In this document: positions 6,479 through 61,864 of the stretch, piece by piece
Layout of the letters: the number at the start of each line of letters is the position of its first letter
Numbering within the stretch: position 1 is the first letter of the stretch
From: a virus
Length of the DNA stretch: 64,000 bases
Strand: one strand, 5' to 3'
Virus record (IMG/VR): IMGVR_UViG_3300027659_000009
Location: 102,353 to 166,352 of that record
Translations under genes and position numbers: made by a program
The notes under the pieces: model-generated
The model's input: only the letters and a program-made list of their open reading frames with translations
Databases searched by the model: none
What the model was told of the DNA's origin: nothing

Positions 6479-7531
6479 ATGAATAGAGAAACGTATTTAG
6501 TGAGAGTATTAGATATGATTATCAGAGATAGTCAGATAGAAGGAAAGAATATTATATATCCTTTCTCTTTACCCTTGTATTCACTTCAGAACAATCAATC
6601 TTATTCACCGTTACATGATAATTTTATTAAATACTGTAAGGATCAGTATGGATTGTCTGAGGAAGAGTCTAGGTATATGTGGTATGACTATAGTACTATT
6701 ATGGGTAGGACTGTAAAAGATGAAGATACTGAAACACCTGAGGAGGATTATATAGATGGGATGATTTACACACCTTTAGATGAAATATATTTATATGGTA
6801 ATTTAGAACCACAAGAGAGGGATGTAAAAGAATCATTAAGGGTATATGGTTTCAATAGTGAGGGACACTATAAGTTCTTTATGAGAGTATATAATAGAAT
6901 CATTGACTCGATAGAAATAAAACATTTAGGGAATGATAATCATTATGTTTTATTCATTAATGAATTCCGTAGAACTAGAGATGGTTTATTCGGGTTACGT
7001 TTATTAACAGATATTGGTAAATGTGATAAAGACTTTATAACATTTTCTTTAAGTTATACAGAATATATCTTCAGATGTTGTATAGATATATTAACAGAAG
7101 GGTTACCAGATGGTGGACAATATGTGGCGATTACTTTAAGTGATATGATATTAGAATACATCTATAAAAATGTATTTCAAAATAAAATACTTCAAAGGGG
7201 AATTTCATTAAATGGAATTAATGAATCAGAGGTGAGAATGGATCGTTTTATGGAAAAGATATTACAGTTCTTAATTGATGATACATACTATATAGAAGAT
7301 AATTTAATACAACTTCCATTCACTAATAAAACAGTGTCTATTCACTATACAAATACATACACTGAATGGAGTATATTAGATGTTATAACATATATACAAG
7401 AACCACCAAAATCATTTACTAATTACTGTGTAGATACATATGGGTTAGATTCAGAATCCATTAGTTTAGTATGGGATAAGTATAGAGTATTCCTAATGGA
7501 GAACTTCCTTAGTCTAACAAAAAGATATTAA
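6479..7531 (+). CDS. YGL-repeat family protein (two copies flanking a central region)
   Basis: YL.RVLD.II.D...YPF...FIKYCKDQYGL; after INE/S a second copy FLIDDT..LPF..NYCVDTYGL..VWDKY. Confidence 0.75.
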   Translation: MNRETYLVRVLDMIIRDSQIEGKNIIYPFSLPLYSLQNNQSYSPLHDNFIKYCKDQYGLSEEESRYMWYDYSTIMGRTVKDEDTETPEEDYIDGMIYTPLDEIYLYGNLEPQERDVKESLRVYGFNSEGHYKFFMRVYNRIIDSIEIKHLGNDNHYVLFINEFRRTRDGLFGLRLLTDIGKCDKDFITFSLSYTEYIFRCCIDILTEGLPDGGQYVAITLSDMILEYIYKNVFQNKILQRGISLNGINESEVRMDRFMEKILQFLIDDTYYIEDNLIQLPFTNKTVSIHYTNTYTEWSILDVITYIQEPPKSFTNYCVDTYGLDSESISLVWDKYRVFLMENFLSLTKRY

Positions 7532-7570
7532 TTTATTTGTGTATGTCATTTATTATTACTACCTTTGGTA

Positions 7571-7739
7571 TGTTGGTGGTAGTACCGAAACAGGCGTACA
7601 TCTGAAATAGATAGTGTGAAGGGATCAAAGGTCGGTTAGTCTAAGGTTTCCCTTATATAAAAATATAAGACAGGTCGGAGTATACCCTCTTAGAGAAGAA
7701 CCTGTTTCTCTGACCCGTCTCGGTTATTAACCACTGACA
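7571..7739 (-). ncRNA. putative ~170-nt structured ncRNA
   Basis: 5'/3' ends pair (GUGGU/ACCAC; ACCGAGACGGG/CCUGUUUCGGU, where mismatches become G-U only on the minus strand); internal hairpins; promoter-like motif at 7743-7774. Confidence 0.55.
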
Positions 7740-7799
7740 ATATAAAGGTACGAATAATTTTCGACATTACCAAATATTTATTAATATATTATTAAAGAA

Positions 7800-8216
7800 A
7801 TGAAGGTAACCATTAAAGGAATCATTAAGGAATCGAATGATAATAAACAAAGGTATTACGATAAAGTATCTAAGGTAATACATCTACCATATTTAAGGGA
7901 TCTTATATCATTAGGTGTACCACCAGATGAATGGAAACCTATATTATCTATTGTTTTTAAACAACCTGTGGCGATATCTGTTCACTCTATGGGTGATGAA
8001 ATTAAAAGTGGGTATGTAATAGATAAATTTACACAAATCATTTATGATGAAGATTCAAATGGTTATTATATAATAAGAGAATATGATAAGTTCCATAATA
8101 AAACATATCAATATAGAAGTATGGATAATTTTTGGGAGAAATCATTATTTAATGATAAGGGAGACTGTGTATATAAATCAAACTCTAAAGGTATTATATT
8201 TGATTTAAGGTATTGA
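7800..8216 (+). CDS. leader-bearing hypothetical; N-domain shared with the 14464 gene
   Basis: MKVTIKGIIKE/S; SKVI..PY..DL.SL.VP...W; C-terminal EDSNG-type beta repeats. Confidence 0.7.
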   Translation: MKVTIKGIIKESNDNKQRYYDKVSKVIHLPYLRDLISLGVPPDEWKPILSIVFKQPVAISVHSMGDEIKSGYVIDKFTQIIYDEDSNGYYIIREYDKFHNKTYQYRSMDNFWEKSLFNDKGDCVYKSNSKGIIFDLRY

Positions 8217-8265
8217 CTTTTTAATTTATTATAGTTAATATTGTATCATAGTTGTTTGATATATT

Positions 8266-8473
8266 AGTCTACGGGGTTCGTTCCTTCCTCCCCACCCTAT
8301 GGAAGGGAAAGGTGATTCTGGATGAACGAAAGTTTGTCATCACTGAACAACGTAGACTCGATGGGATCAGTAACATATCGTACAAAGGTATGAATACAAT
8401 CCCATCACTATTAAAGGGATAATTTAATCATCGGATACTGTTAAAAGATTCGTAAAAAATTATCCCTTTTTTT
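8266..8473 (+). ncRNA. putative structured ncRNA ending in a terminator-like stem
   Basis: Stems AGTCTACG/CGTAGACT, GATGGGAT/ATCCCATC, AAAGGGATAATTT/AAATTATCCCTTT plus T run; GAAA tetraloop hairpin; TTGACT-N17-TAATAT at 8213-8241. Confidence 0.55.
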
Positions 8474-8552
8474 ATTGTATTAAATTTGACATTGTAATAT
8501 ATAATCACTATATTTGTAGTATGAAAAACATCTAAACCATATATATAGTCCG

Positions 8553-8683
8553 TAGGGGGAGAGGGGTACTTTGTGTACATTAATATACAATACCTCTCCC
8601 CTAGAGGGGAGTCCCCCTCAGGTACCCCTACATCACCCCCCTTCCCTCTGGGGGTGTTTTGACACAAAGGGGGTAGGTGATGT
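8553..8683. other. GC-rich hairpin cluster (ncRNA or DNA structural element)
   Basis: GGGGAGAGG/CCTCTCCCC, GAGGGG/CCCCTC and ACATCACC/GGTGATGT stems downstream of TTGACA-N17-TATATTTG (8486-8516). Confidence 0.5.
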
Positions 8684-8899
8684 TGTCCACAAATTTTCCA
8701 GGAAATTTTAAGGTTTAGAAACAAAGTCTTTTTCCGTTCAGTTTATTTTAATTTATATGAGTGAACTTTGGGTTCATCTATAGTGTCTATAATAAACAAT
8801 TATATCCCCCACAAACAACACCCCTTTCTGGTGAGATAAGGGTACCCTTCAAAATTTTCCAGGAATTTTTTCGTTTCCAAATATTTCAATATTTATAAT

Positions 8900-36768: not shown

Positions 36769-39234
36769 TTATTCACTTTTTATAATAATTTCATCTTTTG
36801 GTTTGGAATAACTTATTTTGATGGTACCGTTTTCTTTAATTTTACCTCTTAAAATTTCTTCAGATATCGGATCTTCTACGTGTTTTTGTATCGATCTATT
36901 CAAAGGTCTGGCACCATAATCTTCACTATAACCATCTTCAATTAAGTAATCTCTAACAGTTTTATTGATGATTAAGTTATATCCAATCTCACTCACTCTC
37001 TTCTTTAGTTTTATTAATTCTAAATCTACAACTTTACCAATTTCTTCTTTGGTAAGTGTTTTAAATATAATCACATCATCTAATCTGTTAAGAAATTCTG
37101 GTGGAAATTGTTTCTTCAACTCATCAGTTAAAAGACTTTCTTTGATGGAATCTTCCCTATCAATTTTAGATTTAGTTCCAAAACCTACACCTGTCCCAAA
37201 ATCTTGTAATTTTTTTACACCCACATTAGATGTCATAATTACCATACAATTTTTAAAGTTTACTTTTCTACCTGAACTATCTGTAAGTTGTCCATCATCT
37301 AATAACTGTAACAATGTATTATAAATTTCTTTATGTGCCTTCTCTATCTCATCAAATAGTACTATTGAGTATGGTCTCCTTCTTACTTTCTCAGTTAATT
37401 GTCCACCATCTTTATGTCCTACATATCCCGGAGGAGAACCAATAAGTCTAGATATTGAATGTTTTTCTTGAAATTCCGACATATCTAATCTAATTAATGA
37501 ATCTTCATCACCAAAAAGATATTCCGCCAATCTTTTGGCTATATGTGTTTTACCCACTCCAGTTGGTCCTAAAAACATAAAGGTACCTATTGGTTTTTTT
37601 GGGTTACGAATACCTACTCTATTTCTTCTAATAGATTTGGCAATTTTTTCCAACGCAATCTCTTGACCAATAATAGACTTTTTTAATTCCTCTTCAATCT
37701 CCATCATTCTTTTACCCTGATCACCACCAATTCTTTTTAATGGGATACCAGTCATAGATGAAACTACTTCATTAACATCATCAATAGTTACTACAGTTCT
37801 TTCATTATTTAAGTTAGTAATCCATTTTTCTTTTTCAAACACAAGTTTTTCATTTACTTCTCTTTCCTCATCTCTTAATCTGGCAGCCTCTTCGTACTTT
37901 TGTTTTTTCACAACTTCACTTTTTCTGTTTTTTATCTCACCTATTTGTTCCTCTAACTTATTTATAGATACAGGTGGTTTGATAGACAGTTGACTTTTAG
38001 ATCCTATTTCATCCATAATATCAATTGCCTTATCAGGAAACTCTCTATCAGTAATGTACCTATCTGCCATTTTAACACAATGAACAATAGTCTCTAATGG
38101 GTAAGTCACTTTATGGTAAGTTTCGTATGAAGACTTAATTTTATCCAATATTTGAATTGTTTCCTCTATCGTAGGTGGATCAATTAATACTTGTTGGAAT
38201 CTTCTAGCCAATGCACCATCTTTTTCTATGTGTTCTCTATATTCATCTAATGTGGTTGCACCTATCAATTGTATATCACCTCTAGCCAATGCAGGTTTTA
38301 ATACGTTAGCTGCATCCATAGAACCAGATGCGTTTCCCGCACCAACCATAGTATGTAACTCATCTATAAATAAAATAACATTATCAACCTCCATTAATTC
38401 ATCAACTACACCTTTAATTCTTTCCTCAAATTGTCCTCTATATTTTGTACCAGCGACTAAAGATGTTAAATCTAACGATACCACTCTTTTATCTAATAAA
38501 GTTCTTGGGGCATCACCCTGTGCAATTTTTAATGCCAGCCCTTCAATGATTGTAGTTTTACCTACGCCAGGATCACCAATCAAAACAGGGTTATTTTTTT
38601 TCTTTCTCGCTAAAATCTGTGCGACTCTTTGTATTGCCACATCTCTACCAATAACAGGTTCAATTTTACCTTCAGACGCTCTTTTAGTCACATCTACAGA
38701 AAAATTATTTAATATAGGAGTTTCATTAGATTTAGTTTTAATTTTTGGTTTTGGTATTTTACTAAAATTGTCCTCATCATCTCCACTTATTGGCTCAATA
38801 GAGTTTTCGATTGAGGTTCTGTAACTTTTATAATTTATTTTCATTCCTTTTAATATATTAGTTATATCATTTTTTACTTTTAAAGTTGCCAATAAAATGT
38901 GTTCTGTATCGAGATAGTCATTATTTAATAAATCACATTCTTTTTCAGCACCCTTCAAAATATTCTCAGTTACAGGTTCCATTGGATATTCTTTTTTGTT
39001 TAGTAACATAGTATTGTAATCATCCCTATCTTTATGTAATTTCCTCTCAATACCTTTATGTAACTTATCAACATCCACACCCATATCTATTAACACTTTA
39101 ACTGCGTTATTATTATAATCATTTATTAATGAAATGATTATGTGTTCAATCTTTACTTCATTATCCCCATAAAATTTAGCCTGTTTGATGGACATATTTA
39201 ATATTTTATTTACCTTAGGCAAAATCTTTTTCAT
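36769..39234 (-). CDS. clpC: ClpC-type Hsp100 AAA+ ATPase
   Basis: Clp N-domain; GDPGVGKT, LFIDELH; UVR coil QKYEEAARLRD; GPTGVGKT, LFDEIEKAH; GVGFG ClpP-docking loop; PEFLNRLD; YGARPL. Confidence 0.92.
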   Translation of the reverse strand: MKKILPKVNKILNMSIKQAKFYGDNEVKIEHIIISLINDYNNNAVKVLIDMGVDVDKLHKGIERKLHKDRDDYNTMLLNKKEYPMEPVTENILKGAEKECDLLNNDYLDTEHILLATLKVKNDITNILKGMKINYKSYRTSIENSIEPISGDDEDNFSKIPKPKIKTKSNETPILNNFSVDVTKRASEGKIEPVIGRDVAIQRVAQILARKKKNNPVLIGDPGVGKTTIIEGLALKIAQGDAPRTLLDKRVVSLDLTSLVAGTKYRGQFEERIKGVVDELMEVDNVILFIDELHTMVGAGNASGSMDAANVLKPALARGDIQLIGATTLDEYREHIEKDGALARRFQQVLIDPPTIEETIQILDKIKSSYETYHKVTYPLETIVHCVKMADRYITDREFPDKAIDIMDEIGSKSQLSIKPPVSINKLEEQIGEIKNRKSEVVKKQKYEEAARLRDEEREVNEKLVFEKEKWITNLNNERTVVTIDDVNEVVSSMTGIPLKRIGGDQGKRMMEIEEELKKSIIGQEIALEKIAKSIRRNRVGIRNPKKPIGTFMFLGPTGVGKTHIAKRLAEYLFGDEDSLIRLDMSEFQEKHSISRLIGSPPGYVGHKDGGQLTEKVRRRPYSIVLFDEIEKAHKEIYNTLLQLLDDGQLTDSSGRKVNFKNCMVIMTSNVGVKKLQDFGTGVGFGTKSKIDREDSIKESLLTDELKKQFPPEFLNRLDDVIIFKTLTKEEIGKVVDLELIKLKKRVSEIGYNLIINKTVRDYLIEDGYSEDYGARPLNRSIQKHVEDPISEEILRGKIKENGTIKISYSKPKDEIIIKSE

Positions 39235-39240
39235 ATACGA

Positions 39241-39272
39241 TTTGTTTTTTATTATAAATATCCTTATCTTTG
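39241..39272 (+). promoter_or_regulatory. Bacteroidota-type promoter overlapping the divergent late motif of clpC
   Basis: TTTG-N20-TATCTTTG on +; ATATTTAT on - at 39254-39261. Confidence 0.7.
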
Positions 39273-39295
39273 TATTCAAATTTAATAAATAAATT

Positions 39296-53502: not shown

Positions 53503-53555
53503 TATTTAGTTTTTTTCGATATTTATTATAATAGTAATAAAGTATAAAGATAAAA

Positions 53556-55457
53556 ATGGCTAAAAAAACGATATTTCAACAGTTAAATGATTTATTCGGT
53601 CCTGAAGTAAAAAGGGCAGAAAATAAATCTAGATATTCTATTAATGATAAGGAACTCCTTAAAACTAAATCTAAGGAAGATTTTGAATTCGAAAAACTTA
53701 AAAGACAACAAGATTCCTATTTGTCAAATATGTGGCAAAAAGTTGATAATGAAATATATCAACACTCCATATATTATGAAACAACAAGGTTAGCATCTTA
53801 TGCGGATTTTGAGGGTATGGAATTTTTCCCAGAAATTGCAGCAGCATTAGATATTATGATGGAGGAGTCAACAACTTTAAATTCGGAAAATAAAGTTTTA
53901 AATATTTTTTCTGAGAGTAGAAGAGTTAGAAGGATATTAGAAGATTTATTTTTCAATAGATTAGATATTCATACCTCATTACCAATGTGGACAAGAAACA
54001 CTTGTAAATACGGTGATAATTTTTTATTCTTAAATATCGATAGTGATGAAGGTATAACAGGTGTTAAACAACTACCTAACATTGAAATTAGTAGAAAGGA
54101 AAATGAGGGGTTTGGTGATAGTTCTAATGTTTCAGATACAGATAAATTTAACCCAGTTACGTTTATTTGGGGTCAGAGAGACATAGAATTTAACGCTTGG
54201 CAAATTGCCCATTTTAGATTATTAGGTGATGATAGAAGATTACCTTATGGGACATCTATGTTAGAAAAGGCAAGAAGGATATGGAAACAATTATTATTAT
54301 CTGAGGATGCGATGTTAATATATAGAGTAACTAGGGCACCCGAAAGAAGGATATTCAAAATATATGTAGGTAATATTGACGAAAAGGATGTACCTGCCTA
54401 TGTTAATAAAATTGCAGATAACTTTAAAAGGAGTCCAGTAATCGATCAAAAAACAGGACAGATAGACACTAGATACAATCAAATGGCACAAGATCAAGAT
54501 TACTTTATCCCTGTTAGAGATCCAAACGCACCGAGTCCAATAGATACATTGGCGGGGGCAACAAACCTATCTGAGATTGCGGATATACAATATCTTCAAA
54601 AAAAATTATTTACTGCACTTAGAGTACCTAAACCTTTCTTAGGTTTTGAGGAGGCGAATGGTGATGGTAAAAATTTAGCACTACAGGATATTAGATTTGC
54701 TAGAACTATCAATAGAATACAACAGTCAATTATACAAGAACTTAATAAAATTGCGATTGTACATTTATATATTTTAGGTTTAGAGGATGAATTAGAAAAT
54801 TTCACACTTTCACTTAATAACCCATCTACACAGGCTGAGATGTTGAAGGTTGAACAAACTCAATTAAAAGTAACATTGTATAAGGATTCTGTAGCGGACG
54901 CAGGTAATGGGTTTGGTGCAATGTCTATGACTAGAGCCAAAAAAGAAATATTGGGTATGTCTGAAGAAGAGATAAGAAATGACTTAGAACAACAAAGATT
55001 AGAAAAAGCGGCAGCGGCAGAAATGGAACAAACCGCAGAGGTTATTAAGAAAACAGGATTATTTGACAGAGTCGATAAACTATATGGTGACTTTGACGCA
55101 TTATTATCAGGTGCAGGTGAAGCCGAAGCAGGTGCAGGTGGTGACGCAGGTGCGGCAGGTGGAGATATGGGTGCAGGTGGAGATATGGGTGCTGCAGCAG
55201 AACCAGCGGCAGAACCAGCGGCAGAACCAGCAACCACAGAATCTTTTAGAAAAGATGGTACTTTATTGACTGAGGAAAAAAGAAGAATATATGAAGAAAA
55301 AACTAAAAGATATCAAGGAATTTATTTAAGGAGACTTACTGAAAGTTTAAAGAATAATGAACACGTTTATAATTTAGACTCTGTTGAGAAGGATACTGAT
55401 ATATTAAATTCTAAGATCAGTGAAATGACTAAAGAAATAGATAAATTAACTAAATAA
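53556..55457 (+). CDS. portal protein (T4 gp20-like)
   Basis: PEIAAALDI, EDAMLIYRVTRAPERRIF.I.VGN, QDYFIP.R, IDTLAG, YLQKKLF.ALRVP. Confidence 0.95.
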   Translation: MAKKTIFQQLNDLFGPEVKRAENKSRYSINDKELLKTKSKEDFEFEKLKRQQDSYLSNMWQKVDNEIYQHSIYYETTRLASYADFEGMEFFPEIAAALDIMMEESTTLNSENKVLNIFSESRRVRRILEDLFFNRLDIHTSLPMWTRNTCKYGDNFLFLNIDSDEGITGVKQLPNIEISRKENEGFGDSSNVSDTDKFNPVTFIWGQRDIEFNAWQIAHFRLLGDDRRLPYGTSMLEKARRIWKQLLLSEDAMLIYRVTRAPERRIFKIYVGNIDEKDVPAYVNKIADNFKRSPVIDQKTGQIDTRYNQMAQDQDYFIPVRDPNAPSPIDTLAGATNLSEIADIQYLQKKLFTALRVPKPFLGFEEANGDGKNLALQDIRFARTINRIQQSIIQELNKIAIVHLYILGLEDELENFTLSLNNPSTQAEMLKVEQTQLKVTLYKDSVADAGNGFGAMSMTRAKKEILGMSEEEIRNDLEQQRLEKAAAAEMEQTAEVIKKTGLFDRVDKLYGDFDALLSGAGEAEAGAGGDAGAAGGDMGAGGDMGAAAEPAAEPAAEPATTESFRKDGTLLTEEKRRIYEEKTKRYQGIYLRRLTESLKNNEHVYNLDSVEKDTDILNSKISEMTKEIDKLTK

Positions 55458-59125: not shown

Positions 59126-60925
59126 ATGGGACATTTGTTAAACTCAGGTGAAGTCGGAAATATCGGACTTGAACACCTAAAACAAATTAGATCTAAAACA
59201 ATTTCTAAATGGAACCAATTAGGTTTCTTAGAAGGTTTAAAAGGTCACGTAAAAGAGAACATCGCTCAATTATATGAAAATCAAGCGTCTGCTTTGTTGA
59301 ATGAATCAACTTCTGCAGACTCATCAGGTTCTTTCGAAACTGTAGTTTTTCCAATTGTGAGAAGAGTATTCTCTAAATTATTGGCTAACGATATCGTATC
59401 AGTACAAGCCATGAACATGCCAATCGGTAAATTATTCTTCTTTGTACCTAAAACATCTGATGGAGCGTTTCCATTGAATGGTTCTAACGACGGTGTTAAT
59501 GGAGCATTACCTGAATGTGTAATTGGTGGATGTGCTGCAGAAGCAGTAACAACATACTACGCAAAAAGTCTTTATGATTTATATTATAACGATGGTTTGT
59601 ATGATGCATCTAAAGGTAAGGCTACTATCAACGTTGAAACTGGTAACACTTCTAATGGTAATACCGTTAGAATCCTTTCAGGATTAACATATGACACTGC
59701 GTATTCTGCTGGTTCACAAAAAGCTTTGGCTGGTGATGGTTCAGTTAGATACCTTAAATTAGGTGTACAAGGATTTCAAGATGCAGGTGCAGGTAGATTA
59801 ACAGGACCGGACGGAAATGAAATGGATACTGAAACATTTTTAGCATCACTTAAAGTTGTTGTTAGAGGTGGAGACATTAAAGATCCAAGCAATAATCTTA
59901 TTGTTGCAAACGGTGGTGAAGTACCTTTTAGACTTATCGCTCAAAAATATGGTAAAGGTATCGTTAATTATAGTAGTATCTGTTCTGCGACTGATGGGAC
60001 TTTAGTATTAGAAGTAGATTTAACACACCCAACTTGTACATCTTGTGCAGAAGCAACACTTGATGGTTACATCGGTGCAAATTCTGGTTTAACTAGAAGT
60101 ACTAATGCTACTTATTCAGCAATTACGTTTGACGTAAGTTGGATGCAATATGCATCTTTAGAATACTCTACAGAAATGGGTGAGGTTTCTTTTGAATTGG
60201 ATGAGGTAGTTGTATCAGTAACTGAAAGAAAACTAAGAGCAACTTGGTCACCTGAATTAGCACAAGACGTTAGTGCATTCCATAACATCGATGCGGAGGC
60301 TGAACTTACGGCTCTTTTATCTGAGCAGGTTGCTGCTGAGATCGATAGAGAGATCTTAAGAGACTTAAGAAGAGGTGCTGCATGGCAATTGAGATGGGAC
60401 TATAACGGATGGAAAAGAGCAAACTCTGGTGGAGGTTTCAACGCATACACTCAAAAAGAGTGGAACCAAACGTTGATTACTAAAGTCAATCAAGTTTCAG
60501 CACAAATTCACAAATCAACTTTGAGAGGTGGCGCTAACTTCGTAGTAGTATCTTCTGAGATATCAGCAATTTTTGATGACTTAGAATACTTCCACGTATC
60601 TAACGCTTCTCCAGAGCAAGATCAGTACAATATGGGTATTGAGAAAATCGGTTCATTAGGTGGAAGATATACTGTATATCGTGATCCTTACGCACCAGCG
60701 AACTCAATCATCATTGGACACAAAGGTAAGTCATTGTTAGATACTGGATACATTTACGCTCCGTATGTACCATTACAATTGACTCCAACATTACAAAACC
60801 CATTCAACTTCGCACCAACGAAGGGGATTATGACTAGATACGCTAAGAAAATGGTTAATAACCGTTTCTATGGTGTAGTAACAGTTGACGGTGTTGTAAC
60901 GTTCAATATTGACGAATTGAGATAA
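59126..60925 (+). CDS. major capsid protein (T4 gp23-like)
   Basis: ENQ...LLNE/S, P.VRRV...LANDIVSVQAM..P.G, RKLRATWSPELAQD..A.H.IDAEAEL, YAPYVPL, GIMTRY. Confidence 0.97.
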   Translation: MGHLLNSGEVGNIGLEHLKQIRSKTISKWNQLGFLEGLKGHVKENIAQLYENQASALLNESTSADSSGSFETVVFPIVRRVFSKLLANDIVSVQAMNMPIGKLFFFVPKTSDGAFPLNGSNDGVNGALPECVIGGCAAEAVTTYYAKSLYDLYYNDGLYDASKGKATINVETGNTSNGNTVRILSGLTYDTAYSAGSQKALAGDGSVRYLKLGVQGFQDAGAGRLTGPDGNEMDTETFLASLKVVVRGGDIKDPSNNLIVANGGEVPFRLIAQKYGKGIVNYSSICSATDGTLVLEVDLTHPTCTSCAEATLDGYIGANSGLTRSTNATYSAITFDVSWMQYASLEYSTEMGEVSFELDEVVVSVTERKLRATWSPELAQDVSAFHNIDAEAELTALLSEQVAAEIDREILRDLRRGAAWQLRWDYNGWKRANSGGGFNAYTQKEWNQTLITKVNQVSAQIHKSTLRGGANFVVVSSEISAIFDDLEYFHVSNASPEQDQYNMGIEKIGSLGGRYTVYRDPYAPANSIIIGHKGKSLLDTGYIYAPYVPLQLTPTLQNPFNFAPTKGIMTRYAKKMVNNRFYGVVTVDGVVTFNIDELR

Positions 60926-60946
60926 TCAATTAAATATAACAACAAT

Positions 60947-60975
60947 AAAAAGGGTAGAGTTTTCTACCCTTTTTT
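60947..60975 (+). terminator. intrinsic terminator after the capsid gene
   Basis: AAAAGGGTAGA-GTTT-TCTACCCTTTT. Confidence 0.85.
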
Positions 60976-61009
60976 GTTTTATAGAATATTTATTATTATA
61001 TTTGTAACT

Positions 61010-61864
61010 ATGAGAATAAAGAAAAAATATGTTTTACTGGAATCGTTATTAATTGACACTAGTAGTGAATTTTCTAATAGTGAAAAAAGAATATTAAGAT
61101 TAATACATAAAAAATATAATGAAGAAAGAGAAAAATATAATTTTAGTGTCTACGAGGTTGCGGCATGGTTAATTGAAGACTTTGAGTTATCATATGGAGT
61201 GGCATTTGAATTATCTAAATCTTATTTTTTGGAGGGTAGTAGATTATTTAGTGAATATGAACCATTAAGAAAAAAATGGCCGATTGCTGAGATATTTTTT
61301 AGTAAGATTGGTGAATTTACTAATGAATTTGTCAAATCATTCCCTAATGATACATATGGTAGTGTAGAAGTTAAAATAAAAGGTGATGAAGGGTTTAATG
61401 ATGTAAGAGATGTTAGAATATGGGGAGGGTATAACTCACTAGCACTTTACTTAAATTTTCCATTTTATAGAATATATGACGGAATTAGAAGTACCTATCT
61501 TGGTGGTGAAAGTTCTGACGCTAGACTTATAAGAGTAGATATTGGTTTTAAACTATTAGATAATGATGGTAATACTGTCGACGCATCTCCTCGATGGAGA
61601 ACTGAAGAATATGAAGATGGTAGTATTAATTTAAATGAATTCTTAGTTTCTGTAAATTATAGGATTGGTTCGGGTGATAGTCGAGTGTCTAAAATTTTAA
61701 TGGAATTAAAAGTTCCGTTCCCACAACCTTTAACTAAACAGTCAGTTATAGATATTTTTAAAAAAATAACAGAAGACACTATTCAAAAAATTCAATCCAC
61801 TACCTTTAAACTACCCGCAGGTATAGAACCCATAGTTGTTAGTGCAGGTAGTCAACTTGATTAA
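61010..61864 (+). CDS. leader-bearing hypothetical
   Basis: MRIKKKYVLLE/S; late motif at ~60986. Confidence 0.65.
   Translation: MRIKKKYVLLESLLIDTSSEFSNSEKRILRLIHKKYNEEREKYNFSVYEVAAWLIEDFELSYGVAFELSKSYFLEGSRLFSEYEPLRKKWPIAEIFFSKIGEFTNEFVKSFPNDTYGSVEVKIKGDEGFNDVRDVRIWGGYNSLALYLNFPFYRIYDGIRSTYLGGESSDARLIRVDIGFKLLDNDGNTVDASPRWRTEEYEDGSINLNEFLVSVNYRIGSGDSRVSKILMELKVPFPQPLTKQSVIDIFKKITEDTIQKIQSTTFKLPAGIEPIVVSAGSQLD

Follow-up and report, generated by a model that had tools for sequence, protein, structure and literature searches.

A 64-kb window (the whole stretch of DNA analysed here) carries, at positions 7536-7774, a locus that probably consists of two separate small non-coding RNA genes, arranged tail to tail and each equipped with a host-type promoter. 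The two-gene reading is based on the promoters, on covariation within each arm, on the separability of the two units and on the opposite strand preference of their wobble pairs. The pair, designated RNA-L (left unit, plus strand) and RNA-R (right unit, minus strand), most likely represents undescribed, new convergent phage small-RNA genes. An earlier note on this DNA had proposed a phage non-coding RNA locus between two convergent promoters; this is supported, with part of the locus being read from the minus strand.

The window belongs to a virus record of 166 kb (CheckV completeness 51%, GC 29.7%), in which T4-type portal, capsid and terminase genes are present. The record also contains a tmRNA gene, for which an unusual tag (AKEEVVFA) is predicted, together with three tRNA genes (Glu, Met, Arg), found at record positions 53548-53916 and 60728-61022, both beyond the window; ARAGORN detected no tRNA or tmRNA within the window. 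A bS21 gene (74129-74284 of the record, minus strand; 44 bits, above the Pfam cut-off) likewise lies beyond the window and does not adjoin the capsid module. Bacteroidetes phages that encode bS21 and have genomes of ~300 kb have been described (PMC9723584), and by its T4-type genes, its tmRNA and tRNA genes and its bS21 gene the record therefore resembles these phages. Judged from this gene content, the record most likely derives from a giant T4-like phage of Bacteroidota. Within the window, positions 36769-39279 (minus strand) hold a phage gene for a full-length ClpB-like double AAA+ chaperone.

The locus is flanked by two open reading frames (ORFs) from the ORF list:

6479-7531, plus strand, ORF of the upstream flank
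7800-8216, plus strand, ORF of the downstream flank

No credible ORF was found between these two, and the GC content is 0.38-0.39 in the block versus ~0.25-0.30 in the flanks. The earlier description of an ORF-less, GC-enriched segment was therefore borne out. The upstream ORF of the window and small ORFs in the related loci L023, L025 and L028 belong to a repeated family of ~100 amino acids with the ending YC..(Y/F)GL..E..(V/Y)W, and the RNA units stand at the borders of shuffled modules of these family genes.

For the protein encoded upstream, 79 relatives were found, with identities down to 48%. In all 15 loci fetched via this protein the upstream gene is followed by the same gap of ~269 nt, and a nearly unchanged element occupies the gap in 14 of the 15; the gap of L007 is mostly unresolved sequence. 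An exact 18-mer retrieved one more divergent IMG/VR copy and 105 metagenome stretches, of which ~90 are true homologues (72 distinct), all of uncultured origin. Identity to the window copy is 74-99% in the left half and 77-100% in the right half, and about half of all RNA columns are invariant, the 18-mer itself being so by construction. Conservation of the block far exceeds that of the flanking genes, the neighbouring protein falling to 48% over the protein-found part of the set. Searches of GenBank phages (megablast and blastn) revealed no copy of the RNA part, and an 18-mer search of GTDB genomes likewise gave no copy, all 32 matches being chance or coding.

Two promoters face inward from the ends of the block:

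7536..7567, plus strand, RNA-L promoter, TTTG-N20-TACCTTTG, an exact match to TTTG-N19-21-TAnnTTTG
7536-7539, plus strand, RNA-L -33 box TTTG, followed by a 20-nt spacer with a conserved ATGTC
7560-7567, plus strand, RNA-L -7 box TACCTTTG
7743..7774, minus strand, RNA-R promoter, TTTG-N20-TACCTTTA
complement of 7771-7774, minus strand, RNA-R -33 box TTTG, then a 20-nt spacer
complement of 7743-7750, minus strand, RNA-R -7 box TACCTTTA

Both fit the Bacteroidota sigma-A consensus (TTTG, 20 nt, TAnnTTT[G/A], 4 nt, G). The inward-facing, promoter-like motifs noticed earlier were thus confirmed at exactly 7536-7567 (plus) and 7743-7774 (minus). The final base of the RNA-R -7 box is A instead of G; 42 of the relatives have A at this position and 12 have G. 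The -7 box of Flavobacterium psychrophilum lies at -12 to -5 (PMC9723704), a placement that puts +1 at G7572. The predicted starts should be G7572 on the plus strand and G7738 on the minus strand. The left promoter pattern is present in 58 of 73 distinct homologues, all 58 having a spacing of 20 nt and then 4 nt to the G. With identical spacings, the right pattern is present in all 54 window-type homologues. Its start-base clause missed 19 sequences with another right-hand partner (variant B, see below); inspected by eye, these carry TTTG, 20 nt and TATCTTTA or TACCTTTA. The relatives retain the boxes and the ATGTC element, with variation in the other spacer letters.

In the window as a whole, the strict sigma-A motif occurs nine times versus 2.2 expected. 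Most of the other copies lie directly 5' of ORFs in the same orientation, and one precedes another RNA. A sigma-70-like sequence, TCGACA-N18-TATATT at 7761-7790 (plus strand), was considered as a promoter of the downstream gene and rejected; it mirrors the conserved ATGTC spacer element and overlaps the RNA-R promoter, and it is doubtful that such a site would function in a Bacteroidota host.

Further non-coding blocks follow downstream. A second non-coding gene, conserved in L002, is located at 8212-8473 (plus strand). Its promoter is ATTG-N20-TAATATTG, from which a start near 8248 is predicted, and it has a multi-helix body followed by a clear terminator (13-bp stem and U-run, ~8413-8473). 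Its Rfam match, glutamine-riboswitch-like and on the opposite strand, is weak and sub-threshold (E 0.41). A third conserved non-coding block, almost identical in L002, extends over 8485-8870 (plus strand). Here an exact TTTG-N20-TATATTTG promoter at 8485-8516, with a predicted start near 8521, is accompanied by very G/C-rich hairpins (GC up to 0.53) and by two near-identical AAATTTTCCAGGAA palindromes ~160 bp apart.

The left unit is predicted to adopt the following fold:

7572 to ~7660, plus strand, RNA-L, ~85-90 nt predicted, with a covariation-supported fold
7572-7591, plus strand, stem-loop SL1
7595-7603 with 7609-7618, plus strand, hairpin P2, 9 bp, bulged
7619-7624 with 7649-7654, plus strand, helix P3o, purine strand AAGGGA with UCCCUU
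7630-7633 with 7638-7641, plus strand, hairpin P3, nested inside P3o

Pair counts for RNA-L were taken from alignment A6 with 49 distinct sequences, in which 88.7% of cells are paired, versus 32-55% with the partners slid. Pair 35/46 of P2 is CG in 27 sequences and AU in 19, the pairs of P3o alternate between GC and AU, and SL1 and P2 were recovered independently by RNAalifold. The helices need the plus strand, as indicated by invariant G-U pairs and by P3, which is 97% paired on the plus strand versus 59% on the minus strand. A structure model of RNA-L (R1) scored 109.7 bits at the locus and had no other match in the 166-kb record. Invariant columns number 44 of 86, a figure in which the invariance of 7584-7601 is partly by construction because most homologues were retrieved by the exact RNA-L 18-mer. 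The AAGG-GAAA-CCUU hairpin of the earlier note is lost in relatives. Several variants have a U-run, and the window's own RNA-L lacks a clean one after its last helix. Since, in addition, a simple terminator scan called no site in 7536-7774, read-through of RNA-L is possible and may give rise to longer, overlapping transcripts.

The right unit and the centre of the block comprise:

7738 to ~7655, minus strand, RNA-R, ~80-85 nt predicted, starting at G, with a covariation-supported fold
7738-7717, minus strand, stem-loop SL1'
7716-7712 with 7676-7672, minus strand, closing helix of a three-way junction, GGGUC with GACCU
7711-7706 with 7697-7692, minus strand, hairpin B
7689-7687 with 7680-7678, minus strand, hairpin A
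7671-7659, minus strand, U-rich tail
7655..7671, unstranded, AU-rich centre and meeting point of the two predicted 3' ends, U-rich on the minus strand (RNA-R tail)

In alignment A8, with 40 distinct sequences, 93.9% of the RNA-R cells are paired, versus 35-50% with the partners slid, and the covariation score is 0.170 versus at most 0.091 in the slid controls. Six pairs, half of them in SL1' and half in hairpin B, show two-sided changes. Three to four pairs of SL1' covary, among them 10/28 (CG 33, UA 7), 15/24 (GC 26, AU 8, UA 6) and 16/23 (UA 25, GC 8, UG 7). RNAalifold alone recovers SL1', the junction and both hairpins. RNA-R pairs better on the minus strand, the closing helix scoring 0.895 there versus 0.762 on the plus strand; a few substitutions in the right half favour the plus strand, namely C to U in the inner junction-helix pair (7 sequences) and A to G at 122/170 (13 sequences). 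The earlier assignment of the whole element to the minus strand, made from its G-U pairs, thus holds for the right half and fails for the left half, where the helices need the plus strand.

The model of RNA-R (R2) scored 118.1 bits, on the minus strand only, and found a single copy in the 166-kb record; 37 of 73 columns are invariant. Columns 76-84 of A8 (UUAUAUUUU, 3' of the last RNA-R helix) are at least 90% conserved, and a short form of RNA-R, described below, has a run of ~7 U in place of UUAUAUUUU. As to the remaining hairpins that had been read from the sequence, AGAGAA/UUCUCU displays two-sided changes in three of its six pairs and stands, whereas CUUAUAU/AUAUAAG coincides with the AU-rich centre where the two predicted 3' ends meet, with only 78% pairing. 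Also considered was a pseudoknot joining ACAGG to the loop of hairpin B. It fits the data on the plus strand, but competes with the junction helix and is baseless if RNA-R is a minus-strand RNA, and it was not retained.

The two units are separable among the relatives. In 19 distinct sequences RNA-L is combined with a different, unrelated convergent partner. In this variant B (L023, L025, L028, L042 and others) another convergent RNA with the same kind of promoter replaces RNA-R. On the plus strand of variant B, a 9-bp stem followed by seven U encloses the right-hand promoter in a loop of ~48 nt, and this structure may stop plus-strand transcription before the next genes. Conversely, at least 17 distinct sequences, of which 11 were aligned and folded, contain a solitary short RNA-R that lacks SL1. 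It is preceded by a separate TTTG-N20-TATCTTTG promoter and, on the minus strand, shows a run of ~7 U; in some relatives it is located hundreds of bases from RNA-L, past small ORFs, and in L057 it lies directly beyond a plus-strand terminator. The relatives are mosaic, with the breakpoints at the unit boundaries.

The short RNA-R is ~57 nt long and stands tail to tail with small ORFs belonging to the YC..YGL-type family. It was observed in L021, L023, L025, L028, L042, L043, L057, L076-L078 and L081, and further in L084, L094, L101, L102 and L107. Its hairpin B occupies the same place with another sequence and covaries (GGU/ACC versus GAU/AUC).

Both RNAs start with the same stem-loop SL1 of 20-22 nt, where a GGU-loop-ACC hairpin is enclosed by the pairing of GUY with RAC. 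Beyond SL1 the bodies differ, RNA-L having a bulged 9-bp hairpin, a purine-rich strand and a nested 3' hairpin, and RNA-R a three-way junction and a U-rich tail. Only the promoter and the initial 20-30 nt are alike. RNA-R gives no match to the RNA-L model, and the idea that the two are copies of one gene was rejected on this ground.

According to the mechanism we propose, both RNAs would be made early by the host polymerase, both transcripts would stop in the AU-rich centre and both would act in trans. The most likely mode of action, to which we give somewhat less than an even chance, is that the RNAs bind a conserved protein, of either host or phage, and that SL1 serves as a shared handle or 5' stabiliser. 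Strong conservation, together with the lack of a complementary target in phage or host-type genomes, weakly favours such protein binding. We think it unlikely that SL1 is a dedicated protein handle carried by at least two RNA bodies, delivering or titrating a conserved host factor early; candidates for this factor are ribonucleases, RNA chaperones and RNA-sensing defence proteins. If true, the pair would represent a new, RNA-based class of tool with which Bacteroidota phages take over the host or counter its defences. To our knowledge, the small RNAs of these phages are almost unstudied, and we know of no Hfq-type small-RNA biology in Bacteroidota as known from E. coli.

Action by base-pairing, either with host or phage mRNAs or of the two convergent RNAs with each other via overlapping 3' ends, is in our estimate improbable. 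Conserved unpaired stretches are present, for example GAAGRRAUCARAGG in RNA-L and the 8-nt hairpin B loop, and a few bases at most lie between the two 3' ends. However, the stems are as invariant as the loops, which is unusual in a seed-pairing RNA. Outside AU-rich runs, no complementary stretch of at least 11 nt was found in the 166-kb phage record, and the counts of 10-mers are within the shuffle range. Searching 401 Bacteroidia genomes with both RNAs by BLAST gave two matches, both at chance level and none repeated; as a measure of likeness to CRISPR repeats this result covers those 401 genomes, and short repeats may be missed. In 151 Flavobacteriaceae genomes, model R1 found no significant match (best E 0.047 per genome) and R2 none at E up to 0.1. 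Four weak matches to the SL1 region in one Saprospiraceae MAG were discarded, both of those inspected being coding sequence. Antisense control, which had been suggested as a possibility, would be conceivable only if the convergent transcripts overlapped briefly at their 3' ends or read through.

It is very unlikely that the block encodes one RNA of ~170-190 nt from one strand, with its ends joined in a long closing stem around a multi-branch core and with a role as a 6S-like or other decoy. The block ends do form an inverted repeat, with arms complementary over ~9 + 5 bp and G-U pairs on the plus strand, and a single plus-strand model of the whole block has 92% of its cells paired, versus 41-47% in slid controls. 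The lack of a clean terminator in the window's RNA-L would also suit a single transcript, and single-sequence folding is modestly better than shuffles on either strand (z ~-2). The apparent long closing stem is, however, explained by the promoter and SL1 being present twice in opposite orientation. Per-pair counts in 49 distinct sequences revealed covariation within each arm and none between the arms. The cross-arm pair 21/188 is A.C in 7 of the 49, pairs 33/176 and 34/175 are broken in 15-16, and mismatches at four positions affect 7-16 sequences. The outermost 'helix', P0 (7560-7567 with 7743-7750), consists of the two -7 boxes, and its free middle positions vary independently (columns 7/201). 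The model with the closing stems P0, P1 and P1b was rejected on these counts.

Hence the block ends, which the earlier note had paired into an RNA helix, form an inverted repeat in which two-sided changes across the arms are lacking and the same bases covary locally. The covariation among homologues that it had put forward as a check was found inside each arm and is absent across the supposed stem. Its single closed-end RNA of ~170 nt is not upheld either, since each arm has its own 5' stem-loop, the halves are found apart in related phages with their own promoters, and the left and right helices favour opposite strands. Rfam gave no match, 6S included, for the whole window at the gathering score, and none that was credible for 7400-7900 with permissive filters and E up to 10, the best matches being mt-tmRNA (E 2.4) and an RT-6 hairpin (E 0.44). 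With no Rfam match to 6S up to E 10 and the closing stem free of covariation, the suggested 6S-like polymerase decoy was abandoned. An inverted repeat of a promoter and a first hairpin can mimic one large closed RNA, which calls for caution with similar candidates.

In T4-type phages, PeSLs (promoter-early stem-loops) are conserved blocks of promoter and terminator; they insulate neighbouring genes and provide sites for crossover (PMC4122927, PMC2839356). We give little credence to the block being a DNA-level regulatory or recombination cassette of this type, acting as insulator and crossover point with functionless transcripts. The phage is T4-like, the block stands among small shuffled genes without known function, its mosaic relatives break at unit boundaries, and it is far more conserved than its flanks, as PeSLs are (PMC4122927, PMC2839356). 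Against this, BLAST and both models find one copy in 166 kb, whereas PeSLs are multi-copy and short, and the promoters point inward, each onto ~85 nt of non-coding sequence, whereas a PeSL promoter drives the next ORF. Moreover, compensating changes keep the helices paired, which DNA-only selection does not explain. A riboswitch or attenuator was rejected, there being no Rfam aptamer and the half that adjoins the downstream gene being read from the opposite strand. The same applies to variant B as a riboswitch or antiterminator (closing helix versus terminator): its 3' arm is a promoter plus a different minus-strand RNA, and its terminator encloses the right-hand promoter instead of standing 3' of an aptamer, which speaks against a riboswitch.

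The two predicted convergent RNA genes are conserved nearly letter for letter across widespread, very large T4-like aquatic phages whose adjoining proteins diverge by half, which points to strong constraint. For further work the locus offers exact predicted starts, folds and a shared 5' hairpin.

Among known systems, 6S RNA (RF00013) has a length similar to that of the block taken as a single RNA, and it shares the complementary ends. It differs in that the locus gives no match to its model, has no supported closing stem or central bubble, and probably comprises two genes of opposite polarity. The likeness to PeSLs lies in the T4-like genome and in an intergenic block of host-type promoter and stem-loops that outconserves accessory genes and sits at mosaic breakpoints; unlike a PeSL, the present locus is a single copy of ~240 bp with two inward promoters onto non-coding sequence and with covarying multi-helix folds. 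Phages are also known to express decoy small RNAs from promoters, as in the RNA anti-CRISPRs (Racr) and the pseudo-ToxI of phage PhiTE, and these RNAs copy a recognisable host repeat. For the pair described here, in contrast, BLAST against 401 Bacteroidia genomes and the structure models applied to 151 Flavobacteriaceae genomes revealed nothing similar or repeated. What RNA-L and RNA-R have in common with Racr and pseudo-ToxI is that they are short, structured, protein-less phage genes with their own promoters, and that their extreme conservation suggests a protein partner.
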